Positions 17,880 to 41,751 are shown, counted from the stretch's first letter. The stretch: 64,000 nucleotides of DNA from Nitrobacter sp. (GCA_035546855.1 DASZVY010000034.1:20195-84194); one strand, 5' to 3'. The notes: generated by a model not told the origin, from the sequence alone. Numbers and translations: made by a program.

Positions 17880-18027
17880 AATACCTCGGTCTCGTCAATA
17901 AGAGCGGCAAGGATAGTTTGTCGGATCGAATCTAGGCGAAAATTCCGCTGTGCGCTACTGTCCGATCAATCCGCGACGCCGGGCGTTGATCCCGGTAGAG
18001 CCACCTGCAGAAAATAGGAACTGGTCC

Positions 18028-19212
18028 ATGGCATCGGAGTCGTCAATAGTGACCGCGCAAGCGATGCTTCCGGACGATGGAACGTCCGGCGCGCTGGTGG
18101 GGCGCGTCTGGCTGCCGGAAGTTGCGGGGCCCGCCGTCGTCGCCGTCAGGAGCGACGGGGTTTTCGATGTCACCGCGCGCGTCCCGACGGTGAGCGCACT
18201 GTGCGATGTCGACGATCCGGCGGACGCGTTGAGGCAGACTGAAGGCAGGCGGATCGGCGATCTCGCAGCGATTGTCGCGAACACGCCGCCCGATCGTCGT
18301 GACGCGACGAAGCCATGGCTGCTGGCGCCGCTCGATCTTCAGGTGCTGAAGGCCGCCGGCGTCACCTTCGCAATTTCGATGCTGGAGCGGGTGATCGAGG
18401 AGCGGGCGCGCGGGAATCCCGCATCCGCCGAGGCGATCCGCAAGGAGGTGGTGCGGCTGGTGGGCGACGACCTGTCCCGGTTGAAGCCGGGATCGGCCGA
18501 GGCGATGCGGCTCAAGCAAGTGTTGGTCGAACAGCAGGCCTGGAGCCAATATCTCGAAGTCGGTATCGGTCCCGACGCGGAGGTGTTCACCAAGGCGCCG
18601 GTGCTGTCCGCCGTCGGCACCGGAATGGATGCCGGCCTGCATCCGAAGTCGACCTGGAATAATCCGGAGCCGGAGGTGGTGCTCGCTGTTTCAGGCCGCG
18701 GCCGCATCGTCGGCGCGACGCTCGGCAACGATGTCAACCTGCGCGACTTCGAAGGCCGTTCCGCCCTGCTGCTCTCCAAGGCCAAGGACAACAACGCATC
18801 CTGCGCGATCGGCCCGCTGCTGCGCCTTTTCGACAGGAGTTTCTCGCTCGATGACGTGCGCAAGATGCACGTCGATTTAACGGTGCGAGGGGAGGACGGC
18901 TTCGAGCTCAGCGGTCGTTCGTCGATCGCGCAGATCAGCCGCGACCCCGCCGACCTCGTCGCGCAGACGATCGGGCCGGTGCATCAATATCCCGATGGCT
19001 TCGCGCTGTTCCTCGGCACCATGTTCGCGCCGGTGAAGGACAGGGATGTGCCGGGGCAAGGCTTCACCCACAAACCCGGCGACATCGTCACGATCGCAGC
19101 GCCGCAACTCGGTCGGCTCGTCAATCGCATGCGTCCGAGCGACGAATGCGAGCCGTGGACGTTCGGCATCTCGGCGCTCATGAAAAACCTGGCGGCGCGC
19201 AAGGTGCTTTGA
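18028..19212 (+). CDS. Fumarylacetoacetate hydrolase-family protein
   Basis: ORF 17950..19212. ATG at 18028 (MASESSIV) is preceded by AGGAA. The C-terminal half resembles the FAH fold (NDVNLRDFEG ... GTMFAP). Confidence 0.7.
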   Translation: MASESSIVTAQAMLPDDGTSGALVGRVWLPEVAGPAVVAVRSDGVFDVTARVPTVSALCDVDDPADALRQTEGRRIGDLAAIVANTPPDRRDATKPWLLAPLDLQVLKAAGVTFAISMLERVIEERARGNPASAEAIRKEVVRLVGDDLSRLKPGSAEAMRLKQVLVEQQAWSQYLEVGIGPDAEVFTKAPVLSAVGTGMDAGLHPKSTWNNPEPEVVLAVSGRGRIVGATLGNDVNLRDFEGRSALLLSKAKDNNASCAIGPLLRLFDRSFSLDDVRKMHVDLTVRGEDGFELSGRSSIAQISRDPADLVAQTIGPVHQYPDGFALFLGTMFAPVKDRDVPGQGFTHKPGDIVTIAAPQLGRLVNRMRPSDECEPWTFGISALMKNLAARKVL

Positions 19213-19249
19213 TCCGGAGACCGCGGATGCCAATCCCGGCGGAGAGGCT

Positions 19250-22200
19250 TCAAAACAGGCTGAGTTGCTGTGCCGGCCTGCGTTTCCGCCCGGCCGCGCC
19301 ATCGCTGATCGTCAGGTCCGCCGCGATCTCCTTGAGGAACGGCGAAGGCGGCGGCGCGCGCACCGCGCCGCGCCAGAACCGCTCGGCCGCGCGCGTCAGG
19401 AACAGCCTGTCCTTGGCGCGGGTCATGGCGACGTAGAACAGCCGCCGTTCCTCGGCCGCCGCTTGGTCGTCGTCCGGTGTCGCCGCGTCGTCCCACGAAA
19501 ACGGCACCAGCCCGGCCTCGAGCCCGACGACGAACACGACCGGAAACTCCAGCCCCTTGGCCGCGTGCATGGTCGCGAGCAGGACACGGTCGGCGCGCGC
19601 GTCGCGGAAATCGGCCTCGGTGGACAGCGCCACCGCCTCCGCGAACCGGGCCGGATCGCCAGCGACCGAATCCGATGCGGCGAGCGCAGTGAGCCAGCCG
19701 CGGGCCTCGGCCAGCGCGGCCGCGTCGGCTTTCTCCGCCCTGCGGGCGTTCTCCGCCGCTTGCCCGATGCGCGCGGGAAGGTTCATTTCCTCCGGTGTGT
19801 CCAGCCCATCAAGGATCGCCGTCACGCCGGGATGGCCGGCGATGGGAGCGGGCGAGCTTTTCATGAACGGAATGCCGGTGCGGTCGAAGGCGGCCCGCAG
19901 CGCCGCCGCCTGCGCGTCGGTGCGATAGAGCACGGCGCAATCGGCGAAGCCGAGCGGCCGGCCGCCGCCGGCATCGGCGCCGTTGCGGTTGGCCGCGAGG
20001 AGATCGTGTCCGCCGAGCAGGCTTTCGATGGTGGCTGCAACGAAGTCCGCTTCCGCCGCCTCGTCCGCCGCCGCATGGGTCACGATCGGCTGGCCCATCG
20101 GACGGCTGATGTCCGCGGATGCTGCGCCGATGAAGCCCGCCGCCGCCGTCACGATGGTGCCGGTCGAGCGGTAGTTGCGCGTGAGCCTCAAGGTGCGGGC
20201 GGAAGGGAAATCCCGCTGGAAGCGGGCAAAGCAGGCGGCATCGGCGCCGCGAAAGCCGTAGATCGCCTGATCGGGATCGCCGATCACGCAGAGCCGGCCG
20301 CCGTCGCCGGCGATCAGCCGCAACAGGCGGTATTGCTGCTCGTCCACGTCCTGAAACTCGTCGGCGACGACGTGCGGGAAGCGCGCCTGCCACGCGGCGG
20401 CGACCGTCGCGTCCGTCTCCAGAAGATCGGCCGACAGCACCACGAGGTCGTCGAAGTCGACGAAGCCCCGCGCGCGGCCGAGCCGGTCGAGCACGGCGCG
20501 CGCGTGTGCCGCCTCGTCCGAGCCGCTCGCGCCGGTGCGCTTGAGCACCGAGACGGCCCGGAGCAGGCGGGCGGCGCGCGTCTCGCTGACGCCCATCGCT
20601 TCGGCCAGCGCCGCCGTGCGCTCCGCTTCACCAGCGACGCGAACGTCCGCGCCGAGACCGCCGCGGCCGGCATGCGCCCGCAGGATCGCAAGGCCCAGCG
20701 AGTGGAAGCTGTGCACCGCCACCTCCCGCGCCTCCGCGCCGAGCAGTCCGGCGAGCCGTGTCCGCAGTTCCTCGGTCGCCTTGCGGGTGAAGGTGATGGC
20801 AAGGCACGCTCCCGCCGCCACGCCACGCTCGCGCATCAGATGGGCGATTCGGTGGGTGAGCATGCGTGTCTTGCCGGATCCGGGCCCGGCAATCACCATC
20901 AGCGGTCCGTCGACGGCTTCCGCGGCGCGTGCCTGATCAGGGTCGAGACCGGCGAGAACGCCGCTGCGTTCCGAGGGCTGCATCGCGGGGGCTTCAGGGG
21001 GCGCCGGTTCGTCTACCGGGGTCTCTTTCGCCTTGGGTTTCGCCCGGCGTGCGCGGCTGGACAGCGGCGCGTCGAACAGCATCCGGTTTCCGGCGAGGCG
21101 GTCGATCTCGCTGTCCTCGAACAGACGGATGACGCCATATTCGCCGTCATAGCCGGCCTGACGGATGACCGCGCCGGAACGCAGCCGCGTCACCGCCTCG
21201 CCGAGCAGCGGATGGACCTTCGCCACATCCTCGACGGCCAGCTCTTCCAGCAAGGCAAGCTCTGGCCCGAGCACGGCGATCGTGCGGTCATAGGTGTGGG
21301 ACACGGCTTTCGAGGCGACGCCGCTGCCGACGATCTCCGAGAGGATCTCGGGCAGGGGCACCAAGCTCGTCACCGCGCCCGCCGTCGCCGGCGGCACGGC
21401 CTCGGCCTCGCTGCGGTCCGCGAGCGCCTCGATGCGATGGGCTACGCCCACAGTGACGGGCCGCCCGCAGACCGGGCAACGGCCGCCGAGCGCGAGCGTT
21501 TCCTTGGGGTCGAGCCGCACGCCGCAGGCGCGGTGTCCGTCCAGATGGTACTTGCCCTCTTCGGGGAAGAACTCGACCGTGCCGACATAGCCGTCGCCGG
21601 TCTCGAGCGCGCGGCGGATGGAAAAATAGTCGGGCTCGCAGGAAAAGCGCGTCGCCTCGCGACCGAGCTTGCCGGGCGAATGGGCGTCCGAATTGGAGGT
21701 GAGACGGAAGCGGTCGAGCGCGGAGAGGCGCCAGTTCATGGCCGGATCGGACGACAGCCCAGTCTCCACCGCGAAGATGTGCCCGGCGAGGTCGCCGTAG
21801 CATTCCTCGATGGAGTCGAAGCCAGATTGCGAGCCGAGCGCCGCGAACCATGGCGTCCAGATGTGGGCGGGGACGAGATAGGACTCCGGCCCGGATTGCA
21901 GCGTGATCTCCAGCAGGTCGCGCGAGTCGAGCCCGAGGATCGGGCGTCCGTCGGAAGCGATGTTGCCGATGCGGCCCAGCGCCGCCGCCAGCCGGTTCGC
22001 GGCGTCGAGATCGGCCGCATAGATCAGGTGATGGATTTTTCGGGTCTTCTCGCCCTTCTTGTAGATGGTCGAGATCTCGGTGGACAGCATGAAGGAGACC
22101 GGCCGCCGGCAGGCCGGCGGCAGGGTCTCCAGGAGCGCCGTCTCGATGTCGGGCCGCAGGCGGAAGAGTCCGTTGCCTTCGGCCACCAGCTTGTCCTTGA

Positions 22201-22354
22201 TTTCGGCGAGCCAGGCCGGATGCACGCAGTCGCCGGTGCCGACCACCCGCACGCCCTTGCGCGCCGCCCACCAGAACAGGTGCTCGAGATCGAGATCCCG
22301 GCTCGTGGCGCGGGAATATTTCGAGTGGATGTGCAGGTCGGCGTGGAAGGTCAT
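19250..22354 (-). CDS. Fusion protein: endonuclease-Q-like PHP nuclease with Zn ribbon (aa 1 to about 415) plus UvrD/Rep-type SF1 DNA helicase (aa about 466 to 1034)
   Basis: N-terminal PHP metal motif ADLHIHSKYSRA, also NSDAHSP and HLDGHRACG...CPVCGRPVTVGVAHR. Helicase motifs AGPGSGKT (I), ADEFQDVD (II), GDPDQAIYGFRGA (III), TRNYRST (IV), TMHAAKGLEFPVV (V) and YVAMTRAKDRL (VI). Confidence 0.85.
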   Translation of the reverse strand: MTFHADLHIHSKYSRATSRDLDLEHLFWWAARKGVRVVGTGDCVHPAWLAEIKDKLVAEGNGLFRLRPDIETALLETLPPACRRPVSFMLSTEISTIYKKGEKTRKIHHLIYAADLDAANRLAAALGRIGNIASDGRPILGLDSRDLLEITLQSGPESYLVPAHIWTPWFAALGSQSGFDSIEECYGDLAGHIFAVETGLSSDPAMNWRLSALDRFRLTSNSDAHSPGKLGREATRFSCEPDYFSIRRALETGDGYVGTVEFFPEEGKYHLDGHRACGVRLDPKETLALGGRCPVCGRPVTVGVAHRIEALADRSEAEAVPPATAGAVTSLVPLPEILSEIVGSGVASKAVSHTYDRTIAVLGPELALLEELAVEDVAKVHPLLGEAVTRLRSGAVIRQAGYDGEYGVIRLFEDSEIDRLAGNRMLFDAPLSSRARRAKPKAKETPVDEPAPPEAPAMQPSERSGVLAGLDPDQARAAEAVDGPLMVIAGPGSGKTRMLTHRIAHLMRERGVAAGACLAITFTRKATEELRTRLAGLLGAEAREVAVHSFHSLGLAILRAHAGRGGLGADVRVAGEAERTAALAEAMGVSETRAARLLRAVSVLKRTGASGSDEAAHARAVLDRLGRARGFVDFDDLVVLSADLLETDATVAAAWQARFPHVVADEFQDVDEQQYRLLRLIAGDGGRLCVIGDPDQAIYGFRGADAACFARFQRDFPSARTLRLTRNYRSTGTIVTAAAGFIGAASADISRPMGQPIVTHAAADEAAEADFVAATIESLLGGHDLLAANRNGADAGGGRPLGFADCAVLYRTDAQAAALRAAFDRTGIPFMKSSPAPIAGHPGVTAILDGLDTPEEMNLPARIGQAAENARRAEKADAAALAEARGWLTALAASDSVAGDPARFAEAVALSTEADFRDARADRVLLATMHAAKGLEFPVVFVVGLEAGLVPFSWDDAATPDDDQAAAEERRLFYVAMTRAKDRLFLTRAAERFWRGAVRAPPPSPFLKEIAADLTISDGAAGRKRRPAQQLSLF

Positions 22355-22498
22355 GATGCGGCGCCATTCGTCTTGCGGACGGAATGCGAAGATTCTTCAA
22401 TCCCTTGATAGCATGCGGCAACAGGGACGGCTCCCAAGGAAAGCGTGCAAATCACAGCATTCAAAGTAGCGCGGCAGCGGCACCGTCAGTCGGTTGAT

Positions 22499-22551
22499 TT
22501 GGACCATATAATGGTCTAAATCTCTCAGAGAATTGGACCTCCAAATGGTCC
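22499..22551 (+). promoter_or_regulatory. Two copies of inverted repeat TTGGACC-N7-GGTC(T/C) upstream of vapB; the first embeds TATAAT
   Basis: GGACCatataatGGTCT at 22501..22517 and GGACCtccaaatGGTCC at 22535..22551. TATAAT at 22507..22512. GGAGAGGAG Shine-Dalgarno just before the ATG at 22568. Confidence 0.6.
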
Positions 22552-22567
22552 GGAGAGGAGCAGGGTC

Positions 22568-22825
22568 ATGCAGGTCCCCGTAACCGAGGCCAAGGGGCAG
22601 TTGACGGAACTGGTCCGGCGCGCCGAGGCGGGAGACGAAATCATCCTGACTCGGCACGGCCATGCCGCCGTGCGGCTGGTGCCGGTCAAGACCGCGCCTG
22701 ACCGGAAATCCCGCCGGGCGCTGCTAGAGGCGGTGCGGGCATCTGCCGCCGCGAAGGCGACGGCTGGACCGAGCGCCGCGCGCAGCCAAGATTTTCTCTA
22801 TGCCGATGACGGCCTGCCCGGATGA
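22568..22825 (+). CDS. vapB: Type II antitoxin, Phd/YefM-type (VapB role)
   Basis: 85 aa. N-terminus MQVPVTEAKGQLTELVRRAEAGDEIILTRHGHAAVRLVPV is the Phd/YefM fold signature. It overlaps the downstream PIN gene by 4 nt (ATGA). Confidence 0.85.
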   Translation: MQVPVTEAKGQLTELVRRAEAGDEIILTRHGHAAVRLVPVKTAPDRKSRRALLEAVRASAAAKATAGPSAARSQDFLYADDGLPG

Positions 22826-23205
22826 TCGCCGTCGATACGTCCGCGCTGATGGCGATTGTCCTGAACGAAACTGAGGCGGATGCCTGCGCTGGGGCGCTTG
22901 AGGCTGAGGATCGCCTGTTGATCTCCGCCGCCACCGTGGCCGAGGCATTGATCGTTGCTGCGCGACGCAACGTTGGCGAAGAGATGGCCAGGTTGGTCGA
23001 TGGGCTTGGCCTTGAGATCGTCAGCGTAACACCCGCATCGGCGCGGCGCGTCGCCGGGGTTTACGCGAAATGGGGGAAGGGCGTTCACCCCGCCTCGCTG
23101 AATTTCGGCGACTGCTTCGCCTACGAAGTGGCGAAGGAGCATGAATGCCGGTTGCTCCATGTGGGCGAAGATTTCACACGGACGGATGTCGAGGGCGTAT
23201 TTTGA
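22822..23205 (+). CDS. vapC: Type II toxin, PIN-domain ribonuclease VapC
   Basis: 127 aa. MIAVDTSALMAIV (first acidic residue) and C-terminal FGDCFAYEVA ... DF match the PIN acidic quartet arrangement. Confidence 0.85.
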   Translation: MIAVDTSALMAIVLNETEADACAGALEAEDRLLISAATVAEALIVAARRNVGEEMARLVDGLGLEIVSVTPASARRVAGVYAKWGKGVHPASLNFGDCFAYEVAKEHECRLLHVGEDFTRTDVEGVF

Positions 23206-23300: not shown

Positions 23301-24257
23301 CTATTTGACGCGAACAACGCGGAAGCCGATGTTGCTTGCTGAGCTGTTGGGTGTATTCGAACTGCGAGCCGCGACTCGATAGCGGTTGCAATAAGATTCG
23401 TGGCAGAGAAACGAGCCGCCGCGCAGAGATCTGTACGGAGTGAGATCGGCAAAAAGCGGGTCCGACGACGCCGTCGCCCTGTGATACTGCGGAGAAAAAT
23501 GGTCCTCGCACCATTCCCAGACATTGCCCGCGACATTATGGAGGCCGTATCCGTTCGGCTCAAACGCGTGCACGGGCGCCGTGCCGAAGTAACCGTCGTC
23601 GATTGTGTTGTGATCGGGAAAGACGCCCTGCCAGATATTGCAACGATGGTGGCCTGCAGGTTGCAGTTCATTGCCCCAGGCATAAATCGCCTGATCTAAT
23701 CCGCCGCGCGCGGCCATTTCCCATTCCGCTTCGGTCGGCAGACGCGTCCCCGACCATTTGCAATAGGCCTGGGCATCGTTCCAGGAGACGTGCACAACGG
23801 GATGATCGAGCCGGTCGAGAACGGTGCTGGATGGTCCTTCGGGCTGCGCCCAGTAGGCATGCGGCACGGCCACCCACCACGGGGTTTCCCGCGCGCGGCC
23901 GGTGAGATCAGCGCGACTGGCTTGTGATAGCAGCCCGTCGAACACAAAACTCCAGCCGTATCGTTCGGCGTCGGTCGTATATCCAGTTGCACGAACGAAG
24001 TCGCCGAACTGAAGGTTGCTCACGGCATAGCAGGCGATGGCGAATGTCGAGACCGTAACCGCACGGATCGGGCCTTCGCCGTCGTCTGGAAAGCGCGTGT
24101 CATCCGAGCCCATCCGGAATGTGCCGCCGATTGGAGCACTCCATTTCCGCGGGATCGGAACAGGATTTGGCGAGATGGCGCGCAACGCGTCGCCGCCCGG
24201 TGCCGACGCCCTGCCGGCATGGCCTTGAGCGCAGCACTGAGGGCGGCCTTCAACCAT
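23301..24257 (-). CDS. Formylglycine-generating enzyme (SUMF1/FGE family)
   Basis: FGE-sulfatase domain motifs HPVVHVSWNDAQAYCKW, RLPTEAEWEMAARGG, NVWEWCED and RGGSFLCHESYC (Cys pair). No signal peptide visible. Confidence 0.85.
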   Translation of the reverse strand: MVEGRPQCCAQGHAGRASAPGGDALRAISPNPVPIPRKWSAPIGGTFRMGSDDTRFPDDGEGPIRAVTVSTFAIACYAVSNLQFGDFVRATGYTTDAERYGWSFVFDGLLSQASRADLTGRARETPWWVAVPHAYWAQPEGPSSTVLDRLDHPVVHVSWNDAQAYCKWSGTRLPTEAEWEMAARGGLDQAIYAWGNELQPAGHHRCNIWQGVFPDHNTIDDGYFGTAPVHAFEPNGYGLHNVAGNVWEWCEDHFSPQYHRATASSDPLFADLTPYRSLRGGSFLCHESYCNRYRVAARSSNTPNSSASNIGFRVVRVK

Positions 24258-24300
24258 CTGAGTTGTCGTACCTTCTCGCCGAGAGCGCTGATGTTGCCGG

Positions 24301-25941
24301 CTATTTTTGCTTCTCTTCTTCCCAGAATGCCGTGCCGCCTTCGGCCTTCATCAATTCCAGAATCTTCTCGCGCGGAATCACCCCGCAACGATCGGCCCAG
24401 CGCCGATAGTGCTCGGCCATGTCCCGAACGCGATCCGGATGCTGCGCGGCGAGATCGTGCATCTCGGTCCGGTCGGTTTCCATGTCGTAGAGCTCCCACG
24501 GACCGGGATACTTTCGCACCAGCTTCCATTTTCCGATCCGAACGGCGGCATTGCCTTCGTGCTCCCAAAACAGCGGCCCGCGTGCGCCGTAGGCTGACGC
24601 AAACGACGGCACGAGGCTTTCGCCTTCGCATGGCAGGATCGGATGACCGTCATATTCCCTGGGGTAGGGCGCGCCGGTGACGTCGAGAATGGTCGCCATG
24701 ACGTCCGGCAACTGGCTTGGATTGTGCCGCAGGCCGCCTCGCTCGGAGATGCCCGCCGGCCAATGCACGATGAACGGCGTGGCGATGCCGCCTTCATGGA
24801 CCCAGTGCTTGTAGAGCCGGAACGGCGTGTTCGACAGGTTCGCCCATGCCGTGCCGTAGCTCTGATAGGTGTCCTCGCCGCCCGGCATCAGCGACGGATC
24901 GTTGCCGAAGCGAACAGGTTTGCCCGCGCGCGTCTTTGCCTTGGCGATCATGAGCTGATCGACCAGTTCCCGCGCGGTGACGCCTTCCGGGATGTCTTCG
25001 GCGCAGGCCCCGTTGTCCGACAGGAAGATGATCAACGTATTGTCCATCTGACCGGTTTCCTCAAGGCTCTTGAGGATGCGCCCGATGCCCTGATCCATGC
25101 GGTCGATCTGCGCGGCATAGACTTCCATGCACCGCAGCGTCCATTCCCGGTGTTGCGCTTCGGTCCACGGCAGCTGGGTGGGATCGCGGTCGGTCAACTG
25201 CCAGTTGGGGTGGATGATCCCGTCGTCGACCAGCCGCTTGAGGCGCTGTTCGCGCAGGCGGTCCCAGCCGGCATCGAAGCGTCCCCGGTATTTTGCGATG
25301 TCCTCATCATGGGCATGCAGCGGCCAATGCGGCGCCGTATAGGCGACGTACTGGAAGAAAGGTGCGCCGGGATGGTTCTTTCTGTGCTGGCGGATATAGG
25401 CCACGGCCTGATCGCTGATCGCATCGGTATAGAAGAACGACGGATCATTCTCGGCTTCATGCTCGATGTTGTCGTTGCCGCGCGTCAGCGTATTCGGGTT
25501 GTAGAAGCTGCCCGCGCCGATGATGGTGCCGTAAAAATGATCGAACCCGCGCTGCAGCGGCCACGCGTCGGTGGGTTCGGTCAGGTTGCTCGCGATATGC
25601 CACTTGCCGCTCAGATATGTCGTGTAGTTCTTTTGCTTGAGGACCTCGGCGATCGTCACGCAGCTCTTGTTCAGATTGCCGGCGTAGCCTTCCGGGCCAT
25701 TGCTGTAGGTCAGGATGCCGATGCCGGTCTGGTGCGGGTGCAGGCCGGTCAGCAGCGAGGCGCGCGACGGGCTGCAGCGCGCGGTGTTGTAGAACTGCGA
25801 GTAGCGCAGGCCGTTGGCCGCGAGCCGATCCAGATTCGGCGTTTCGATCTCGCCGCCGTAGCAGCCGATGTCCGAAAACCCCATGTCGTCGTTCAGGATC
25901 AGCAGGATGTTCGGACTGCTGGCTTTTGCACCGTTAGGCAT
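24301..25941 (-). CDS. Cys-type arylsulfatase (formylglycine-dependent sulfatase)
   Basis: N-terminus PNILLILNDDMGFSD and sulfatase signature CSPSRASLLTG (C56 encoded at 25774..25776). 546 aa. Starts MPNGAKASSPNILL, with no signal peptide. Confidence 0.9.
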   Translation of the reverse strand: MPNGAKASSPNILLILNDDMGFSDIGCYGGEIETPNLDRLAANGLRYSQFYNTARCSPSRASLLTGLHPHQTGIGILTYSNGPEGYAGNLNKSCVTIAEVLKQKNYTTYLSGKWHIASNLTEPTDAWPLQRGFDHFYGTIIGAGSFYNPNTLTRGNDNIEHEAENDPSFFYTDAISDQAVAYIRQHRKNHPGAPFFQYVAYTAPHWPLHAHDEDIAKYRGRFDAGWDRLREQRLKRLVDDGIIHPNWQLTDRDPTQLPWTEAQHREWTLRCMEVYAAQIDRMDQGIGRILKSLEETGQMDNTLIIFLSDNGACAEDIPEGVTARELVDQLMIAKAKTRAGKPVRFGNDPSLMPGGEDTYQSYGTAWANLSNTPFRLYKHWVHEGGIATPFIVHWPAGISERGGLRHNPSQLPDVMATILDVTGAPYPREYDGHPILPCEGESLVPSFASAYGARGPLFWEHEGNAAVRIGKWKLVRKYPGPWELYDMETDRTEMHDLAAQHPDRVRDMAEHYRRWADRCGVIPREKILELMKAEGGTAFWEEEKQK

Positions 25942-33943: not shown

Positions 33944-34207
33944 TCAGTTTGCGTGGCGAGGCTCGGCCAATTTCCTTCGCAGTGAATTGACAAGCCCTCG
34001 CTCGGCTTCGCTCAACATGCGTTCGCCCGAATAGATCACGAACAGCCGCCGGGAGATCGTCGGTTCGGTGATCGGATGTGCGATCAGGTCGCCGGCTGCG
34101 ATTTCGCGTTCCACCGCCGATGGCGGGAGAACCGCGCAGACCGGCAAGCGTGCAAGCAGGGTGACCGCCATCGGCAACGCATCGAATGCTGCAAAATGGC
34201 CCGACAT
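33944..34207 (-). pseudogene. Remnant of a LysR-type regulator (C-terminal ~85 aa of the effector domain only)
   Basis: LPPSAVEREIAAGDLIAHPITEPTISRRLFVIYSGERMLSEAERGLVNSLRRKL matches a LysR C-terminus. No HTH or N-terminal effector domain exists upstream. That frame runs into the hydantoinase 3' end and gives non-LysR sequence. Confidence 0.55.
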
Positions 34208-34218
34208 CTGACTTCCGC

Positions 34219-35637
34219 CTAATCGACGTAGAAATCGGATTCTGCCGACGGCTTCGCCCGGGGGAGATAAGTACCGTGGCCTTTGGTGCCCACGAGGACG
34301 CCATCATCGACTATGACTTTTCCGCGAACCATGGTCATGACCGGCCAGCCGGTGACTTCGAGCCCCTCGTAAGGGGTATAGTCCGAACCGTCATGGACCA
34401 GTTCGTGGCGAATGGTCACTTTGCGTCTGGGGTCCCATAGCGCGATATCCGCATCCGATCCGACCGCTATGGTTCCTTTACGCGGATAGAGACCATAAAT
34501 CTTGGCATGGTTCGTTGCGCTGAATGCAACGAAGCTGTTGAGATCAATACGGCCCTTCATCACGCCTTCGGAAAACAGGATAGGGAGCCGAGTCGCTACC
34601 CCAGGAATTCCGTTGGGTACCCAACGAAAGCTTGTCCGGCCTTTCGGAACCAGCTTGCCTTCCGGATCATCGTAGCGGAATGGGCAATGGTCCGACGAAA
34701 ATACCGAAAACACTTTCTGTTGCAGGCCTTCCCAGCATGCCTTTTGGCTCGCGACATCTCGTGGTGGCGGCGAGCAGACGTATTTTGCGCCCTCCATGTT
34801 CAACTGATCGAGGTCTTTTTCCGTCAACATGAGATATTGCGGGCAGGTCTCGCCCATGACTTTCAATCCGCGCTGCTGCGCCCGCCGGATTTCATCCATC
34901 GTTTCTCGGTTCGAGACGTGCACGATCATAATTGGCACGTCGACGAGTTCGGACAATGAGATGGCGCGATGCGTTGCCTCGCGCTCAACCGGGATTGGCC
35001 GTGATGCGCCGTGAAAGCGGGGGGCGATGTTGCCTGCCCGTTCAAGGCGATCAGTCAGGAATCGGATCGCATCATAGTTTTCCGCATGCACCATGAGCAT
35101 CGCACCGGTCTCCCGCGCGACCGCCATGGTTTCGAGCAGTTCTCGATCCGATAGCGCAAGTCCCTCATAAGTCATGAAAACTTTGAGCGAGGTGTAGCCA
35201 TCCTCCACCAGCGCGGGCAGTTCCTGACCGAGAACCTGCTCGGTTGGATCCGTGACGATCAGGTGGAAGGCGACGTCGACGTGGCACTCTCCATCTGCAA
35301 GTGCGTGATAGCTGCGTAACGCTTCGCACAGCGTCTGGCCTTTCTCCTGCAGGCAAAATGGCATCACCGTCGTATTGCCACCGAACGCTGCGGAGCGTGT
35401 GCCTGTGGCAAAACCGTCGGCCATGACGATTCCTTCGCCGGAGGGTTGAGCAAAATGAACGTGGCTGTCGATGCCGCCCGGCAGCACCAAACGATCGGTC
35501 GCATCGATGATCGCGTCGGCCATGCCGAGATCATCTCCAAGAGCTACGATTTTGCCATCGCGAATGCCAATGTCCGCGGCGAAGGTGTCGGCGGCAGTGA
35601 CGACCGTGCCACCGCGGATGATCGTATCGAATGACAT
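34219..35637 (-). CDS. D-hydantoinase / dihydropyrimidinase
   Basis: ORF 34219..35724. ATG at 35637 (MSFDTIIRGGTVV). Canonical PGGIDSHVH, SLKVFM (lysine), MVHAEN, IVHVS and SSDHCPF. Confidence 0.9.
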   Translation of the reverse strand: MSFDTIIRGGTVVTAADTFAADIGIRDGKIVALGDDLGMADAIIDATDRLVLPGGIDSHVHFAQPSGEGIVMADGFATGTRSAAFGGNTTVMPFCLQEKGQTLCEALRSYHALADGECHVDVAFHLIVTDPTEQVLGQELPALVEDGYTSLKVFMTYEGLALSDRELLETMAVARETGAMLMVHAENYDAIRFLTDRLERAGNIAPRFHGASRPIPVEREATHRAISLSELVDVPIMIVHVSNRETMDEIRRAQQRGLKVMGETCPQYLMLTEKDLDQLNMEGAKYVCSPPPRDVASQKACWEGLQQKVFSVFSSDHCPFRYDDPEGKLVPKGRTSFRWVPNGIPGVATRLPILFSEGVMKGRIDLNSFVAFSATNHAKIYGLYPRKGTIAVGSDADIALWDPRRKVTIRHELVHDGSDYTPYEGLEVTGWPVMTMVRGKVIVDDGVLVGTKGHGTYLPRAKPSAESDFYVD

Positions 35638-35739
35638 GTTGTTGCCCTTCATTCCGGGTCGTCCGTTTGTGCGTGATGACCTCCGCCAATGCATCGGTCG
35701 GTCTGTTGGTCCTTTAAGGTGCAAACGTCGCGCGTGCCG

Positions 35740-36624
35740 CTACGTTGAATATCTCGAAAAGATGGCCTCCAGATCGATTTCACGGGAGACCGAGTCGCTC
35801 AGATTCAAAGATTTCTCGACGTTTGTGAGATGCTCGAGCATTCGTTTCGCTGCCAGTTTCCCGTCACTGTTCTCCAGGGCATCGAGAATGAATCCGTGCT
35901 CGTGAGAAGGGCAGGAGGGAACGTTCGGCGAATCGTAGAGTGCGATCACAAGACAGTTTACGGAGACAAGCTCTCGTACAACGCGATGGAATATCGTGTT
36001 TCCGGACAACCTCGCCAATCGGATGTGAAAATCTCCCGACAATCGCACGATTGAGCGCCGATCGGCCGCCTTGTGGGCCGCCATCTCCTGCGACACGTGA
36101 TTGCGCAACTCCGCAAGCTCCCGGTGACTTGCCACGTTTGCCACGCGCCGCACCAGTTCTGGCTCGATCACGCGCCGGACATCGAGAACGTCACGGGCAT
36201 CGTTGATCGTCGGGCTGGCTACGAAAGCTCCCCGGTTAGGCTGCAAGGAGACCACGCCCTCATAGGAAAGGCGCGCGAGAGATTCGCGTATTTTTGTGCG
36301 GCTGACCTGGAAAATGGATGCGAGCTTTTCCTCCGTGAGTTTTGTTCCCGGTGGAAGGCGATGGTCCATGATCGCATCGAGAATCTTTTCCGAGATCTCC
36401 GAGAGCTCCTGGTCGCCGTATCGTTCCTCGCGTGAGGTAGGCAGAGATCGTCTTGGCAAAGTCGTCGACCCTTCGTTATCACCATTTTGCCGTCCGGCAG
36501 GCGGGCGGTTGGCTTGCCGCCGGTTGGGTATAGTTCGTTTTCGATGCCGACGGAATCCCGCCGATCGGCAACGCACTTGAGATGAACGCCATTTTCGCCT
36601 TCCTGGCTGCGGCCTTGCGCCCAT
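35740..36624 (-). CDS. GntR-family regulator with FCD domain (FadR subfamily)
   Basis: wHTH KLTEEKLASIFQVSRTKIRESLARLSYEGVVSLQPNRGAFV, plus an FCD-like helical C-terminus. The first ~55 residues are Arg-rich and atypical. A TTG at 36459 would give a standard ~240-aa protein. Confidence 0.8.
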   Translation of the reverse strand: MGARPQPGRRKWRSSQVRCRSAGFRRHRKRTIPNRRQANRPPAGRQNGDNEGSTTLPRRSLPTSREERYGDQELSEISEKILDAIMDHRLPPGTKLTEEKLASIFQVSRTKIRESLARLSYEGVVSLQPNRGAFVASPTINDARDVLDVRRVIEPELVRRVANVASHRELAELRNHVSQEMAAHKAADRRSIVRLSGDFHIRLARLSGNTIFHRVVRELVSVNCLVIALYDSPNVPSCPSHEHGFILDALENSDGKLAAKRMLEHLTNVEKSLNLSDSVSREIDLEAIFSRYST

Positions 36625-36696
36625 ATCGGGAAGGGCTCGCGAGTTGCCCCGTTACCCAGGATGCACGATCAGGCCGCCACGGGGCTATTGGATTCC

Positions 36697-37419
36697 CTAT
36701 TTCGTTTGAAAAAGCCGACCCCAGTTCGTCACCCGCGCCGGGTCGATTCCGGCAAGCAAAAGACTCTTCCATAGCGTAACGGCAACCGAATCATAGATCG
36801 TGCACGACAATTCGGCTTCCAGTGCGGTGGCGATAGGCGCGCCCCGCATGTTGGTGCAAAGGATGGCGATGCTGTCGCACCCGGCCGAGACGAGCTCCCG
36901 CGCAATCGACGAGATCCGGTCTTTGTCGATTTCCGCAAAGGAAAAATTGTCCTGAAGATCGAGGTGGCGCTCGGCAACGCAGGGAAAGCCGGCGGCGGCC
37001 CAATTCTGGAGGATCCTCTGCTGCACATCCGCCCGATAGGGGGTCAACAGGCCGACTGTATGGGGTTTTGAGAGTAAAAGCTCGCGATAGGCCAGCGCCG
37101 TTGTGGTGGACACAATCCCGGTCTCCCGCGTGATCAACTCGCAAAGGTGCTCGTCGCGGTCAAAGCCGAGCCAGTTGGCAGAAGTGCCGTTCCACGCGAT
37201 GGTGTCGACCTTTGCATGCGCGAGCAATTCCGCTGCGCGAAGCATATCGTCATAATTGAACTGGCGAACGCCATGCTCGCTCAGGGAAATCTCCGTCACG
37301 GCGAAGCGGGAGAAGTGGGTGCTGAGGTCCGGAATGCCGGCCGTCATCGCCGCGGTGAGCGGCTCCAGCACCGTATTCGACGAGGGGGTGATCATTCCCA
37401 GGCGAGCACCGCGACGCAT
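36697..37419 (-). CDS. Asp/Glu/hydantoin racemase-superfamily protein, arylmalonate decarboxylase / maleate isomerase-like, single catalytic Cys
   Basis: ORF 36697..37500. ATG at 37419 (MRRGARLGMITPSS). Motifs IAWNGTSANW (G78-T-S) and AILCTNMRG (C188). C-terminal WGRLF. Confidence 0.75.
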   Translation of the reverse strand: MRRGARLGMITPSSNTVLEPLTAAMTAGIPDLSTHFSRFAVTEISLSEHGVRQFNYDDMLRAAELLAHAKVDTIAWNGTSANWLGFDRDEHLCELITRETGIVSTTTALAYRELLLSKPHTVGLLTPYRADVQQRILQNWAAAGFPCVAERHLDLQDNFSFAEIDKDRISSIARELVSAGCDSIAILCTNMRGAPIATALEAELSCTIYDSVAVTLWKSLLLAGIDPARVTNWGRLFQTK

Positions 37420-37442
37420 GTCATGTCCCAAATTATAGGCAT

Positions 37443-37460
37443 CAGATTGTATACAATCTG
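37443..37460. promoter_or_regulatory. Perfect 18-bp palindrome CAGATTGTATACAATCTG
   Basis: Read directly. It lies in the divergent promoter region between the racemase-like gene (minus) and the MFS gene (plus). The TTGTATACAA core resembles FadR-subfamily GntR operators. Confidence 0.6.
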
Positions 37461-37552
37461 TGCTATTTTTACATACGAAATATCTTGCAATTGTGAACAC
37501 GCACTGTCAACCTTCCAAAGCCGGATGATCTCAAGCATGGACGGTGTGCAAC

Positions 37553-38935
37553 ATGAGTGCTGTCACGACGACCACCGAGGCTGAGTCTCGTCAGGGACTT
37601 CGGCGTGCCGCAAGCGCTGGATTGGTTGGAACAACCCTGGAATTCTATGACCATTTTGTCTTTGGTTCAGCCGCTGCTCTTGTGTTTCCGAAACTCTTCT
37701 TTCCTCAGGACGACCGGTCGCTGGCGACGCTCCTGTCCATGGTCATCTATGCGGTTGCATTTATCGCTCGCCCGATCGGTGGCGCTGCTTTCGGTCATTT
37801 CGGCGACAAATTGGGGCGGAAGGCGGTTTTGCTATCGACCCTCGTGATGATGGGAACTGCCACGGTTTTAATCGGGTTGCTGCCGACGTATGCAACGCTC
37901 GGGCTTTGGGCTCCAATATTACTGGTGCTGTTGAGATCTATTCAGGGCTTCGCGCTGGGTGGCGAGTGGGGAGGTGCCGCATTGCTGGTTGCCGAGTTTG
38001 ATCCGGCGGGCCGGCGGCGTGGATTCTTCGGCAGTCTCGTGCAGGTTGCAAGTCCTATCGGCGTTCTGCTCGCCAACGCGGTCTTTGCAATAGTCACCTG
38101 GTCCGTATCGGAGCAGGCGTTTTTCTCGTGGGGATGGCGCATTCCATTTCTGATCAGCACCGTGCTGATTGTTTATGGAATCTATGTCCGCTCACAAATC
38201 GGAGAGTCTCCAATTTTTGAGGATATGGCACGGCAAGAGGCCGCTGCCCGTTCTCCGATCGTCGAGACATTGCGCGATCACTGGGGCCGATTGCTGCTGG
38301 CGATCGGCAGCCGGGCCGGTGAGGGCGTCATTTTCTATGTGTTCTCGCTATTTCTGCTGATCTATGGGCCGCAGCATCTAGGTATCACGCGTTCGACGGG
38401 GTTGGTTGCGGTAATCATGGGTGCCGGTGTGGGGGTTGTTGCCATTCCATTTTTTGGCTGGTTGTCCGACCGAGTTGGACGCGTGCCCGTGGTGATCGGT
38501 GGCGCAGTAGGCGCAGCGATTTGGAGCGTGTTGTATTTCTTGCTTCTTCACACCAGGAACCCCACGATCATCGTGATTGCAGGCATGATCGGGATGTTCT
38601 TCCAGGCTGCGCTGTGGGCACCGGCCGCGGCATTCGTGCCGGAGATGTTTCCCGCGCAGGTCCGCTGCACAGCGGCCTCCATCGCTTTCCAAACGGCGCT
38701 TGTATTCGGCGGCGCGTTTTCGCCTGTCGCAGCCGTTTGGCTTGTCAGCAAATTTGATACGTGGATTCCAGTGGCGGCTTACAGCATCATTTCTCTCATC
38801 GTGGTGATCATCTGTGCCGCGTCCGTGGGAGAGACCCTGGGAGTAGACCTTACTGCTAAGCCTCAGAGGGATCAGCCCCTGGATGGGAGGGCCACACGGC
38901 ACGGTCGTGCTGTAAAGGCTCTACGGACGAGCTAG
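37553..38935 (+). CDS. MFS transporter, metabolite:H+ symporter (MHS) family
   Basis: ORF 37544..38935 (GTG). ATG at 37553. LEFYDHFVFGSAAALVFPKLFFP and FGHFGDKLGRK are MHS hallmarks. About 12 TM segments. Confidence 0.85.
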   Translation: MSAVTTTTEAESRQGLRRAASAGLVGTTLEFYDHFVFGSAAALVFPKLFFPQDDRSLATLLSMVIYAVAFIARPIGGAAFGHFGDKLGRKAVLLSTLVMMGTATVLIGLLPTYATLGLWAPILLVLLRSIQGFALGGEWGGAALLVAEFDPAGRRRGFFGSLVQVASPIGVLLANAVFAIVTWSVSEQAFFSWGWRIPFLISTVLIVYGIYVRSQIGESPIFEDMARQEAAARSPIVETLRDHWGRLLLAIGSRAGEGVIFYVFSLFLLIYGPQHLGITRSTGLVAVIMGAGVGVVAIPFFGWLSDRVGRVPVVIGGAVGAAIWSVLYFLLLHTRNPTIIVIAGMIGMFFQAALWAPAAAFVPEMFPAQVRCTAASIAFQTALVFGGAFSPVAAVWLVSKFDTWIPVAAYSIISLIVVIICAASVGETLGVDLTAKPQRDQPLDGRATRHGRAVKALRTS

Positions 38936-38997
38936 GGCGAGAGCTCGATACGCTGTGCCTGCGCTCAGACTAACAACGCCTAACTCGAGGTTTTCCG

Positions 38998-39768
38998 ATG
39001 TTCTCTTCAAATTGCCGGCTGGTCGATCTCTCGGTGCCGATCATGAACGAATCGTTCGACACCCAGGAACAACATATCGAGTACATGTCACATGAAGAGG
39101 TGGCGCGGGGCCGAGCCAAGGCGTATGGGATCCAGCCAGGTGATCTTCCCCTGCCAGGCGTTCATTCGGCGATGGAACGGGTGACGCTGTCGACCCATGC
39201 CGGCACCCACATGGATGCGCCGATTCACTATGGCCCGATGTCCGAGGGAAAGCCGGCAAAGACGATCGATCAGATTCCGCTGGAATGGTGTTTCGGCGAA
39301 GGCGTTGTTCTCGACATGTCGGCGAAGGCGGCGGGCGAAATCATCACGGTCGACGACTTGAAAGCAGCCCTCGCGAAGATCGACCATAAGCTCGTGCCGG
39401 GCGAGATTGTTCTTATTCGAACTGATCGGTGGAAAGACTTCGGGCGATCGGATTATGCCATGCGGCATCCGGGCATGGGACGGGAGTCGACGCTTTGGTT
39501 GATCGAACAGGGCATCCGCATGATGGGAACGGATGGTTGGGGATGGGATGCGCCCATTCCGTGGATGGTCGCAAAGTTCAAGGAAGGCGATAAAGGTGCC
39601 TTCTTCCCCGGTCATTATGCAGGCCGAGACAAAGAGTACTGTCATATCGAGAAGCTCGCCCGCCTCAATGAACTGCCGCCGACAGGATTCAAGATCGCGG
39701 TGTTTCCCGTTTTGATCGACAAGGCATCGGGTGGTTGGTGCCGGCCCGTGGCGTTCGTTCCCGAGTAA
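38998..39768 (+). CDS. Cyclase-family protein (kynurenine formamidase-like metal hydrolase)
   Basis: 256 aa. STHAGTHMDAPIHY motif. Confidence 0.75.
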   Translation: MFSSNCRLVDLSVPIMNESFDTQEQHIEYMSHEEVARGRAKAYGIQPGDLPLPGVHSAMERVTLSTHAGTHMDAPIHYGPMSEGKPAKTIDQIPLEWCFGEGVVLDMSAKAAGEIITVDDLKAALAKIDHKLVPGEIVLIRTDRWKDFGRSDYAMRHPGMGRESTLWLIEQGIRMMGTDGWGWDAPIPWMVAKFKEGDKGAFFPGHYAGRDKEYCHIEKLARLNELPPTGFKIAVFPVLIDKASGGWCRPVAFVPE

Positions 39769-39817
39769 TATGTCTCTTTGATCCAGAACCAAGCTATCCA
39801 TCGAGCAGGAGCGTGCC

Positions 39818-41230
39818 GTGAACCGTAGACTTTCGCGGCTGGGCGCGCGTGAATTGGCGCGTCTGATCTCTCGTCGCGAAATCAGCGCGACCGAATTGGC
39901 AACGTGTTGTCTTGATGAGATCGAACTTGGCAACCCCGGTCTTCGGGCTTTCATTACAGTTGACCCGAAGCAGGTTCGGAAAGCAGCCGAAGATGCGGAT
40001 GCTGAAATAGCAAAGGGCCTTTATCGGGGTGCTTTGCACGGAATTCCTGTCGCCGTTAAAGACAACTGTTTGACGGCCGGAATCAGAACGACCTTTGGCT
40101 CGCGTCTGTATGCGGATCACGTGCCAGATCGAGACGATATTTCGGTTGCCAGGGTCAAGGCCGCCGGCGGCATCGTCATTGGCAAGACGAACTTGCCGGA
40201 GTTTGGCTGCGGTGCATTGTGTGTAAACGATTTATACGGCCCAACGGCGAACCCGTACGATCGCCGATATAGCAGTGGCGGCTCAAGCGGAGGCTCGGCT
40301 GCGGCCGTTGCCGCCGGCCTGGCGCCGATCGCGCTGGGCACCGATTTTGGAGGTTCGCTGCGAACGCCTGCAAGTTTCTGCGGCGTGGTTGGCTTTCGGC
40401 CTACGCCGGGCCGAATTCCGATCGGCTCGGGATCTCTGCCCTGGAGCAGCATGAACGTTCACGGCACCGTCGCGCGCAGTGTCGAAGACACGGTCATGAT
40501 GCTTGAGTCCTTGTCAGGACCTGACGCCTCGGATCCGATGTCGATGGGGGTGAGGACATGGCGGCCCGACGATGTCGCGGACCTTCCAGTGTCGAAGTTG
40601 CGTGTGGGGTATTCGGTCGACCTGAACGTTTCTCCGATCGACGGAGAAGTTCGTCGGATATTCACGCAAGCAATCCGGCGAATGGATGCGATCGGCGTGG
40701 GCGCGATCACCGAGGAAGCACCCGATTGCGCGGGCGCGGTTGACTCTTTCGAGACGTTGCGCGCCGGTATCCTGTATCATAATTACGGCAGATTATGCTC
40801 CGAGCACGGCGGTGCTCTATCGCCTTCCGTTGTCTGGAATGTGCTGCGGGGCAAGGACCTGTCCGCAGCGGAGATGTTGCGGGCGGAATCAGTCCGAGCG
40901 CGTGTGCGTGAACAGTTCAACAAATATTTTGAGAATTACGATATTCTGGTGACTGTCAGCGCGAGCGTTCCGCCATTTCCAAATACGCAGGAAGACGTAC
41001 TTGAAATCGATGGGATGTCCCTGCCCAATATCATCGATTATCTCAGGGTAACCTACGTGATGTCATTGGTCGGCTTTCCTGCATTGTCGCTTCCTTTCGG
41101 ATTCACGAAAGGCGGGCTCCCCGTCGGTATCCAACTGGTCGCAAGGCCTTTCGAGGAGACAACCTTGCTGATGCTGGCGCAGACGCTTGAGGAACATGGG
41201 TTCCACCATGTATGGCCGCCGGATCTGTAG
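39818..41230 (+). CDS. Amidase (amidase-signature family)
   Basis: GTG start. AS motif GGSSGGSAAAVAAGLAPIALGTDFGGSLRTPASFCG with the Ser-cisSer-Lys context. 470 aa. Confidence 0.85.
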   Translation: MNRRLSRLGARELARLISRREISATELATCCLDEIELGNPGLRAFITVDPKQVRKAAEDADAEIAKGLYRGALHGIPVAVKDNCLTAGIRTTFGSRLYADHVPDRDDISVARVKAAGGIVIGKTNLPEFGCGALCVNDLYGPTANPYDRRYSSGGSSGGSAAAVAAGLAPIALGTDFGGSLRTPASFCGVVGFRPTPGRIPIGSGSLPWSSMNVHGTVARSVEDTVMMLESLSGPDASDPMSMGVRTWRPDDVADLPVSKLRVGYSVDLNVSPIDGEVRRIFTQAIRRMDAIGVGAITEEAPDCAGAVDSFETLRAGILYHNYGRLCSEHGGALSPSVVWNVLRGKDLSAAEMLRAESVRARVREQFNKYFENYDILVTVSASVPPFPNTQEDVLEIDGMSLPNIIDYLRVTYVMSLVGFPALSLPFGFTKGGLPVGIQLVARPFEETTLLMLAQTLEEHGFHHVWPPDL

Positions 41231-41382
41231 CCGCCCTTAATTTTCAAAGGTCGCTTTGCATTGTAGAGCAAACCAGTTATTCGCGCTCGTGCTGGCGTAG
41301 CGATACGGATATCGCGATCGGGTGGCGCTATCGTGTACCGTTCAGGCCAGCTGAACTTTTCATTTTCGGCTGGCGACGCGCA

Positions 41383-41751
41383 CTAGCCGTCATCTCGGGG
41401 TCCCCGAAGTCCGTGCGTGATGAACTTCATGTATGTCTTGACCACCCAATCCGGGATCGGCTGCGGTCCGGACGGCGTCTTTGAGAAGCGTAGATACATG
41501 TAGAATCGCGCAGCCATCAGAATGTAAGCAAGAACTTCCAGCTCACGCGGTTCGAACCCTGTGAGTTCGCCGCGCGCGGCTGCGTTCGAGCGCCGCGACG
41601 TAGTGGGCGGCGAGATTGGCCACGTGATTTTCGCAATGGAAGTTGCTTCGTGGCCGCGCTCACCAACAATTTCGGCTGCCGCGCGAATAAGCGCGCGGCG
41701 ATTTTCCTTCACCCGCTCGCTCCGACTTTTCTTGGCCGGCCGCGGGCTCAC
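41383..41751 (-). pseudogene. Probable remnant of a TetR-family regulator (internal deletion/frameshift)
   Basis: The N-terminus ENRRALIRAAAEIVGERGHEATSIAKI is the first part of a TetR HTH, but the recognition helix is missing. An alternative frame right after it reads ANLAAHYVAALERSRAR, like a TetR C-terminal domain. Only 122 aa in total. Confidence 0.45.

Follow-up and report, generated by a model that had tools for sequence, protein, structure and literature searches.

An endonuclease Q-helicase fusion protein ending in a beta-clamp-binding motif in Nitrobacter sp., a candidate nick-and-unwind DNA repair enzyme

We analyzed a stretch of 64,000 nucleotides from Nitrobacter sp. (GCA_035546855.1, DASZVY010000034.1:20195-84194), hereafter the window, which contains on its reverse strand a gene whose product joins an endonuclease Q (EndoQ) to a UvrD-like helicase and ends in a consensus beta-clamp-binding peptide. 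On balance, and with moderate confidence, residue conservation and structure models lead us to read this fusion protein as a probable single-chain, sliding-clamp-tethered nick-and-unwind repair enzyme for deaminated or abasic bases. The fusion brings two well-known enzymes together in a widespread clamp-tethered combination without prior characterization; it extends known families and founds no new one.

The fusion gene is one uninterrupted open reading frame (ORF), 19250..22354 (-), which starts with ATG, has its stop codon at 19250-19252 and encodes 1034 amino acid residues, according to the ORF list and its translation. The G+C content (GC) at third codon positions (GC3) is 0.86 in this frame, a signature of real genes, and the antisense ORF at 19265..22408 (+) is the usual high-GC shadow of the fusion gene. 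The N-terminal sequence MTFHADLHIHS (MxFxADLHIHS) is conserved in homologues from many phyla, therefore the ATG start is sound. Full-length homologues of the protein show 68-86% identity across 100% of its length. An earlier description of the window made from the nucleotides only, the sequence-only reading, had proposed a single polypeptide at this location, and the translation recovers all the motifs quoted there in the places where they had been put: ADLHIHSKYSRA (residues 5-16), NSDAHSP (221-227), HLDGHRACG...GGRCPVCGRPVTVGVAHR (270-307), an Ala/Pro/Lys-rich linker (about 437-465 by composition), AGPGSGKT (489-496), ADEFQDVD (664-671), GDPDQAIYGFRGA (692-704), TRNYRST (725-731), TMHAAKGLEFPVV (928-940) and YVAMTRAKDRL (974-984).

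According to alignment and predicted structure, the N-terminal 415 residues are a bona fide three-domain endonuclease Q and not a generic PHP esterase. Residues 1-416 searched with phmmer against all PDB sequences retrieved entries of PfuEndoQ only (5ZB8, E 3.9e-49; also 7K30 and 7K31), and a profile built from 19 diverse family members aligned with PfuEndoQ across Pfu residues 5-383 (E 2e-71). NCBIfam TIGR00375 matches the fusion with 150 bits (E 1.2e-43) at residues 99-409 only, below its trusted cut-off of 326.6, and homologues carry the precomputed Pfam family PF27218 (MJ0043_C). The AlphaFold2 model of residues 1-416 has a predicted local distance difference test (pLDDT) score of 91.3 and a predicted template modeling (pTM) score of 0.90; the Zn-binding domain is mostly modeled with pLDDT >85. 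Foldseek comparison of this model with PDB places 5ZB8_A at the top, with a template modeling (TM) score of 0.84/0.88 and a root-mean-square deviation of 2.6 A over 421 columns that include all three domains, followed by the dU-DNA complex 7K30_A (TM 0.82), while generic PHP proteins score about 0.33 and at most 0.35.

The metal ligands H8, H10, E93, H108, H164, D223 and H225 align with Pfu H8, H10, E76, H84, H139, D193 and H195, and are invariant in the 19-member alignment and in a 35-sequence full-length alignment of the family, which spans 40-85% identity. In PfuEndoQ the first six of these are ligands of the two zinc ions, and their mutants cleave less or not at all (PMC5961232); H195, the counterpart of H225, is a conserved histidine of the PHP motif. 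The residues of the lesion pocket and wedge, H164, T167, E197, T198, G199, L200, S201, N221, D223 and W169, align with Pfu H139, T142, E167, L168, G169, L170, S171, N191, D193 and W144. They are invariant among the 19 and the 35 members, save W169 (at least 90% in both alignments), N221 (at least 90% in the 35) and T198 (invariant or at least 90%). In the Pfu pocket, thymine and adenine are kept out by steric hindrance from H139, G169 and S171 (PMC8307549), and the GLS pocket (G199, L200, S201), whose counterpart excludes these two bases in PfuEndoQ, is invariant in the fusion family. A predicted His-Cys3 site (H274, C277, C293 and C296) aligns with the Cys4 zinc site of PfuEndoQ, C249, C252, C268 and C271 (PMC5961232); its four residues are invariant in the fusion family, and it is plausibly still a Zn site. 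The three domains, the metal ligands, the lesion pocket and the Zn ribbon are all present, which supports the EndoQ identity proposed in the sequence-only reading, and the comparison with EndoQ crystal structures that it suggested finds the metal and pocket residues kept. Its alternative of a generic PHP phosphoesterase does not hold for a region in which the EndoQ-specific residues are retained.

Sequence comparison identifies the C-terminal module as a distinct subfamily of the superfamily 1A (SF1A) helicases and not an orthologue of UvrD, PcrA or Rep. Pfam domains UvrD-helicase and UvrD_C were found at residues 470-717 (E 3e-60) and 903-988 (E 2e-33), respectively. The nearest solved structures are PcrA (1PJR, E 1e-75), mycobacterial UvrD1 (9DCI, 1e-71) and UvrD (2IS1, 1e-63), the UvrD of D. 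radiodurans and that of E. coli being among the nearest solved proteins. Scores against the NCBIfam equivalog models, compared with their cut-offs, are 341/911 bits for pcrA, 276/1144 for uvrD and 280/951 for rep. In the 35-member alignment Walker A (G490-T496), motif II (D665, E666, Q668 and D669), motif III (G692...G703), R729, motif V (H930, K933, G934 and E936) and motif VI (T978 and R979) are invariant. The module aligns with PcrA residues 8-378 and 552-657, and its 2B domain is about half length, with approximately 87 residues for PcrA 378-552 and four helices at residues 842-910 in the model. The description of this part as a complete UvrD-type helicase therefore stands for the SF1 motifs, every one of which is present and invariant in the family, but not for orthology with UvrD, PcrA or Rep nor for the 2B domain. 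Catalytic residues of the nuclease and motor residues of the helicase are both under purifying selection.

The full-length AlphaFold model (pLDDT 83.6, pTM 0.50) shows two well-folded modules, a disordered linker and a disordered tail (residues 1020-1034). A fixed interface between nuclease and helicase was considered and is unsupported by this model, given its pTM and the disordered linker. The protein ends with ...RKRRPAQQLSLF, and the tail that bears the QLSLF pentapeptide has pLDDT <50. The consensus bacterial beta-clamp-binding motif is QL[S/D]LF or QxxLF, and the C-terminal motif of PolC is QLSLF (PMC12309361). In 113 of 120 close homologues the protein terminates with Q[LMYFH]xL[FL], and among 123 diverse relatives with 950 residues or more, 101 carry Qxx[LMIF][FLIW] in their last 10 residues; the background of the stricter pattern Q[LMYFH]xL[FL] elsewhere in these proteins is 3.7e-4 per position. 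In the 35-sequence alignment the conservation of Q1030 and L1033 is 90% or higher, and the motif is kept across phyla. Archaeal EndoQ binds PCNA through a PCNA-interacting protein (PIP) motif and is stimulated by it (PMC8307549); by analogy, the fusion appears to have the bacterial-clamp counterpart of this tether.

A second clamp-motif-like peptide lies at the start of the linker. Among 124 diverse relatives, 63 show Qxx[LIMF]F within 45 residues after the GYDGEYG anchor, at a distance of exactly 15 residues in 58 of them. The peptide is degenerate (NRMLF) in the clade of the fusion itself and a clear QxxLF in more distant relatives, and some stand-alone EndoQ homologues also carry a QxxLF-like peptide at their C-terminus or close to it. 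From this pattern, the unfused enzyme may originally have had this peptide as its clamp motif.

When 1.84 billion cluster representatives were scanned in full, 3559 matched the EndoQ domain with E <=1e-3, and 1073 of these with E <=1e-30. Among the 150 best cluster representatives (50% identity), 123 have at least 950 residues, mostly 950-1250. A scan with one genome per GTDB species found EndoQ-domain matches in at least 598 species representatives, and the fused or stand-alone status was judged from the ORFs of the best 80 species-representative loci. Sixty-three of these are complete fusions, nine more have the helicase in cis (contig end, truncated or frameshift-split), seven are stand-alone and one is undetermined; thus, the helicase is in cis at 72 of the best 80 loci, and the fusion family is present in more than 12 phyla. 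The taxa among these 80 loci are Alphaproteobacteria, Binatia, Acidobacteriota, Gemmatimonadota, Myxococcota (Sorangium), Planctomycetota, Verrucomicrobiota, Melainabacteria, Chloroflexota, Endomicrobia, Fibrobacterota, Bacteroidota, Latescibacterota and many Actinomycetota (Micromonospora, Salinispora, Streptomyces, Streptosporangium, Kutzneria and others). Among the close bacterial relatives sampled, this EndoQ domain occurs mainly in fused form, and the fusion is common, not rare. EndoQ has been described as occurring in "a limited number of bacteria" (PMC5961232, PMC4357722); given the fused EndoQ of many bacterial phyla, these statements are outdated.

The seven stand-alone loci (L005, L007, L031, L043, L044, L051 and L074) are 57-80% identical to the fused domain and show no helicase nearby, and at three others (L027, L047 and L080) a frameshift or a stop splits the nuclease part from the helicase part. 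Unless these stand-alone and split loci are assembly errors, the fusion would have been repeatedly lost or broken. The best species-representative match (L004, CAZUKU010000001.1), with 85% identity to the EndoQ domain, is labeled as a Gemmatimonas sp. metagenome-assembled genome; its position amid close relatives that are otherwise Hyphomicrobiales and other Alphaproteobacteria suggests mis-binning or a recent transfer.

In the mechanism that we propose, the EndoQ module would flip a deaminated base (uracil, hypoxanthine or xanthine) or an abasic site into its pocket and break the phosphodiester bond directly on the 5' side of the lesion; the resulting ends would be a 3'-OH and a lesion-bearing 5'-phosphate. 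The SF1A motor, held on a flexible linker of about 40 residues, would load at the nick, move 3'-to-5' on the intact complementary strand, pass the lesion and peel the lesion-bearing 5' end off as a flap or an oligonucleotide. A 5' flap nuclease or exonuclease would degrade the displaced strand, and a polymerase would extend the 3'-OH. By binding the beta clamp (DnaN) through QLSLF, the enzyme would be positioned at replication forks or on clamps remaining after them, and could pass the nick to a polymerase and a ligase that are themselves bound to the clamp. In mismatch and excision repair, nicks are the classical starting points for unwinding by UvrD-family enzymes, and the proposed geometry is that of UvrD acting from a nick 5' of the mismatch in methyl-directed mismatch repair. 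Coupled nicking and unwinding by the fusion is plausible, and we infer likewise its substrate specificity, which way it unwinds with respect to the lesion, and that it does bind the clamp.

The 3'-OH and 5'-phosphate ends left by a cut 5' of the lesion are described for EndoQ (PMC4357722), whose discoverers included in their pathway model an unnamed helicase that removes the nicked strand (PMC4357722, Figure 10 legend; PMC8438529). The EndoQ-helicase fusion therefore provides independent genomic support for the helicase step in that model. Somewhat more tentatively than for the enzyme itself, we propose that the EndoQ-helicase-clamp fusion may be the main bacterial form of EndoQ and may define a widespread, hitherto unrecognized, clamp-coupled and glycosylase-free nick-and-unwind pathway in more than a dozen phyla, which would supply the helicase step that had been postulated for EndoQ repair in archaea. 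Its carriers would include Actinomycetota, Myxococcota, Planctomycetota, Alphaproteobacteria and Melainabacteria.

Several observations weigh against the nick-and-unwind reading. The EndoQ domain shares no more than about 29% identity with the characterized archaeal enzyme and about 28% with the Brevibacillus (Bacillus-type) homologue, which is itself uncharacterized. Pfu pocket residue L168 is Thr (T198) in the fusion and one Zn ligand is His instead of Cys, so the substrate range may differ. The 2B domain is truncated, and the model shows no confident packing between the two halves, so that physical coupling would be by the tether alone. Stand-alone EndoQ, up to 80% identical, at seven of the 80 loci indicates that the nuclease can work without the helicase. 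Finally, the GC of the fusion gene is 70-72% (69-72% across 19000..22000) compared to 60-63% in its flanks, and relatives with 85-86% identity sit in three other unrelated metabolic contexts, both of which are compatible with some horizontal mobility.

By codon position, GC in the fusion gene is 0.73 (GC1), 0.52 (GC2) and 0.86 (GC3), with a GC3 of about 0.80 in comparison; the excess is mostly at positions 1 and 2, as expected from an Ala/Arg/Gly-rich protein, and GC3 is slightly raised, so horizontal transfer deduced from GC was set aside as not decisive. The EndoQ domain had no homologue in 50,697 phage records; its single match in 72,556 plasmid records is an EndoQ of Bacillus type, carried by a chromid-like replicon of 733 kb. 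This match (L087, Brevibacillus laterosporus NZ_CP011075.1, 494548..495729), annotated as "endonuclease Q family protein," has a NUDIX hydrolase gene immediately upstream and lies beside spoIIM, fur and xerD, and the 733-kb "plasmid" looks like a chromid or a chromosome fragment. With no phage match and a lone chromid-like plasmid match, carriage by mobile elements was discarded. All-against-all BLAST of the flanking ORFs of the 80 loci found no neighbor family common to different phyla, and no conserved operon partner emerged from it. Among the 80 loci, synteny extends no further than Micromonosporaceae (15 species) and a second group of actinobacteria. The neighbors in these synteny groups are fructosamine kinase, Lsr2, ClpC-like and LysS-like genes. 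In the second group the gene is near lsr2, and clpC-like and lysS-like neighbors occur as well at some actinobacterial loci. Among 92 flanking proteins from 46 non-redundant loci, only a handful match PADLOC models and none is a cas gene, with no enrichment of defense genes. The EndoQ domain itself gave no match in PADLOC-DB v2 at E up to 1 and none in PHROG.

The sequence-only reading had placed the gene at the edge of an accessory-looking block and considered an action on foreign DNA. This was not borne out: the flanks are metabolic, the neighbors are housekeeping genes, the phage records hold no homologue and the plasmid records one, and only the adjacent toxin-antitoxin pair and the raised GC fit such a view. 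Altogether, the context fits a stably inherited, stand-alone genome-maintenance gene and not a mobile defense module.

One alternative is an anti-phage or anti-plasmid nuclease-helicase, in which the EndoQ-like nuclease would attack foreign DNA (uracil-containing, atypical or general) and the helicase would feed it substrate, like Gabija, Nhi or "Wukong." The toxin-antitoxin neighbor, the GC above that of the flanks and the variable location among close relatives point in this direction, as do the good scores of the helicase part against GajB and other defense UvrD models and the suggestion in a review that phages with uracil-DNA might be a target of Bacillus EndoQ (PMC8307549). However, the GajB matches reflect the generic UvrD fold, and the EndoQ domain lacks PADLOC and PHROG matches. 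Membership of a defense system was accordingly rejected as the preferred explanation, since the PADLOC matches are generic GajB/UvrD models on the helicase only and there is no defense-island context. The phage and plasmid counts, the lack of any cas gene or recurring defense family among the 92 neighbors, the stable core-gene synteny within actinobacterial families, the consensus beta-clamp motif kept across phyla and the invariant lesion pocket that excludes normal T and A also argue against it. Wukong, moreover, is described as an ATPase and not a helicase, in type I-C CRISPR operons, unlike the fusion gene. We consider a defense role unlikely.

The helicase could instead serve the nuclease, as an ATP-driven lesion-scanning translocase, or by releasing EndoQ from the nicked product and clearing proteins, with no excision of the lesion strand. 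The same architecture and conservation that suggest nick-and-unwind repair are consistent with this role and do not set it apart from strand displacement; the flexible linker with no fixed interface predicted, the shortened 2B domain, suggestive of an altered regulation compared to UvrD and PcrA, and the stand-alone relatives, which make nicking alone viable, would agree with it too. Since all the helicase motifs are invariant and not the ATPase motifs alone, and UvrD-family enzymes are known to unwind from nicks, such an auxiliary role seems improbable. Still less probable is a general end- or fork-processing nuclease-helicase of the AddAB, RecBCD or AdnAB kind, whose PHP part would be an exonuclease or a structure-specific nuclease. 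The PHP domains of PolX and DnaE are described as 3'-5' exonucleases, the clamp motif would suit fork processing as well, and the UvrD-clade nuclease-helicase fusions AddA and RecB do match the helicase, although more weakly. Yet the whole EndoQ fold is kept, including the Zn and helical domains that clamp bent duplex DNA and the base-flipping pocket, generic PHP nucleases reach TM scores of only about 0.33, and no gene for a RecB-type nuclease or a partner subunit is conserved nearby.

Among known systems, PfuEndoQ (5ZB8/7K30) shares with the fusion the three-domain fold, all metal ligands, the H/T/E/G-L-S/N/D pocket, a CPxCG Zn ribbon and a short C-terminal clamp peptide. Identity between the two domains is only about 29-30%, and two stretches, of about 17 and 7 residues, are inserted in the bacterial one; unlike PfuEndoQ, the fusion has His as first Zn ligand, QLSLF in place of the PIP box and a helicase of about 570 residues attached. 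The Bacillus-type enzymes are likewise bacterial EndoQ homologues, and the EndoQ of B. pumilus and B. subtilis has the same activity as PfuEndoQ (PMC5961232). In contrast to the fusion, the Brevibacillus EndoQ is a stand-alone protein of 393 residues with a Cys4 Zn site, no C-terminal QxxLF and 27.6% identity to the domain. Published accounts regard bacterial EndoQ as rare, whereas the fused family is far more widespread. UvrD, PcrA and Rep have in common with the fusion helicase all SF1 motifs and the 1A/1B/2A layout, and are its best structural relatives by sequence; the fusion differs in the 2B domain of about half length, in lacking the UvrD-type C-terminal extension and in carrying its own nickase, compared to MutH/MutL or UvrC in trans. 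NucS/EndoMS is another repair endonuclease first characterized in Archaea, also bacterial and common in Actinomycetota, with a C-terminal clamp-binding peptide as tether (PIP-type in archaea, beta-clamp type in bacteria), but its fold is unrelated, it makes double-strand cuts at mismatches and it has no helicase.

Gabija (GajA/GajB), Nhi and Wukong also combine a nuclease with a UvrD-like motor or ATPase. Unlike the fusion, they are found in defense islands or CRISPR operons and have no known clamp motifs, and the nucleases of Gabija (OLD/TOPRIM) and Wukong (an unspecified PHP exonuclease) differ from EndoQ. Wukong has about 1026 residues in one chain, with an N-terminal PHP exonuclease and a C-terminal ATPase, and is active against T1, T2, T4 and T6 (preprint 10.1101/2024.12.27.630466). 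It resembles the fusion in size and gross layout, in a comparison by description only, and that same description (ATPase and not helicase, non-specific DNase, CRISPR-operon context) argues against the two being the same. Literature searches found no paper describing an EndoQ-helicase fusion, and the database names of homologues ("UvrD-helicase domain-containing protein," "DNA helicase UvrD" and "TIGR00375 family") include no function for the fusion; the earlier statement that no member had been characterized agrees with the searchable literature and the database protein names. As summarized by Miyazono et al., Shiraishi et al. 2017 divide EndoQ into three families "based on the domain organization," of which families 2 and 3 are bacterial (PMC5961232). 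Going by this summary, a longer bacterial EndoQ form may already have been noted in that classification, though not characterized.

The coordinates of the features are collected in Table 1. The fusion gene is monocistronic and lies tail-to-tail with a gene of the fumarylacetoacetate-hydrolase family at 17950..19212 (+), their stop ends being 37 bp apart. On the other side it is divergent from a Phd/YefM-type antitoxin gene at 22568..22825 (+), followed by a PIN toxin gene at 22822..23205 (+). This toxin-antitoxin pair, previously taken for a vapBC module, is real and includes a PIN toxin, but its antitoxin is of the Phd/YefM type. Neither a sigma-70 consensus nor a GTTC-N7-GTTC box (alphaproteobacterial LexA type) was found in the 213-bp region upstream of the fusion gene, window-wide counts of these being those expected by chance; SOS regulation was discarded, as there is no LexA-type box upstream. 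Inverted repeats of type GGACCAnnnnnnGGTCC (GGACCATTTGGAGGTCC and GACCATTATATGGTC) are found at 22480..22570, just upstream of the antitoxin gene, and look like an antitoxin operator. An 11-bp palindrome, GAAGAATCTTC, is nearer the fusion gene, at about 22385..22395. Beyond the toxin-antitoxin pair, a tandem of genes encoding an FGE-type sulfatase-modifying enzyme and a sulfatase at 23301..25941 (-), followed by a GntR/UTRA regulator and ABC transporter genes, looks like a cluster for the utilization of sulfated substrates. The rest of the window is chromosomal housekeeping, with acyl-CoA carboxylase subunits, ApbC, glutathione reductase and DAHP synthase. At 34000..42000 the GC is lower, 56-59% against a window mean of 62%, and these approximately 8 kb may be the accessory-looking block mentioned above.

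Table 1. Features of the fusion gene and its upstream region (positions in the window)
Feature	Residues	Coordinates	Strand	Remarks
Whole coding sequence		19250..22354	-	1034 residues plus stop; EndoQ-linker-UvrD-like helicase-clamp motif fusion protein
EndoQ PHP catalytic domain	1-263	21566..22354	-	Profile alignment to PfuEndoQ
EndoQ Zn-binding domain	264-332	21359..21565	-	Predicted Zn ligands H274, C277, C293, C296
EndoQ C-terminal helical domain	333-415	21110..21358	-	Aligns to Pfu residues 304-383
Degenerate clamp-motif-like peptide NRMLF	423-427	21074..21088	-	Just after the EndoQ domain, at linker start
Disordered Ala/Pro/Lys-rich linker	423-465	20960..21088	-	pLDDT <50 for residues 423-457 in the full-length model
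SF1A UvrD/PcrA-like helicase core	466-1019	19298..20959	-	Shortened 2B domain at about residues 833-922
C-terminal pentapeptide QLSLF	1030-1034	19253..19267	-	Consensus beta-clamp-binding motif; preceded by basic patch RKRR (residues 1023-1026)
Intergenic region		22355..22567		Shared with the divergent phd/yefM-PIN operon; fusion gene promoter expected here

The picture of EndoQ is changed by its presence in many bacterial phyla, mostly fused to a helicase, by the beta-clamp peptide in which the fused protein ends and by the strong purifying selection on both catalytic centers. EndoQ already serves as a dU-specific tool in deaminase (APOBEC) assays. If the nick-and-unwind reading is true, the fusion would perform a self-contained, glycosylase-independent excision of uracil, hypoxanthine and apurinic/apyrimidinic (AP) sites tied to the replisome clamp, and would correspond in bacteria to the EndoQ repair that PCNA stimulates. 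As a natural "Rosetta stone," it would point to the action of a helicase after EndoQ, and it could matter for the control of mutation rate in high-GC bacteria such as Streptomyces relatives and Micromonospora.

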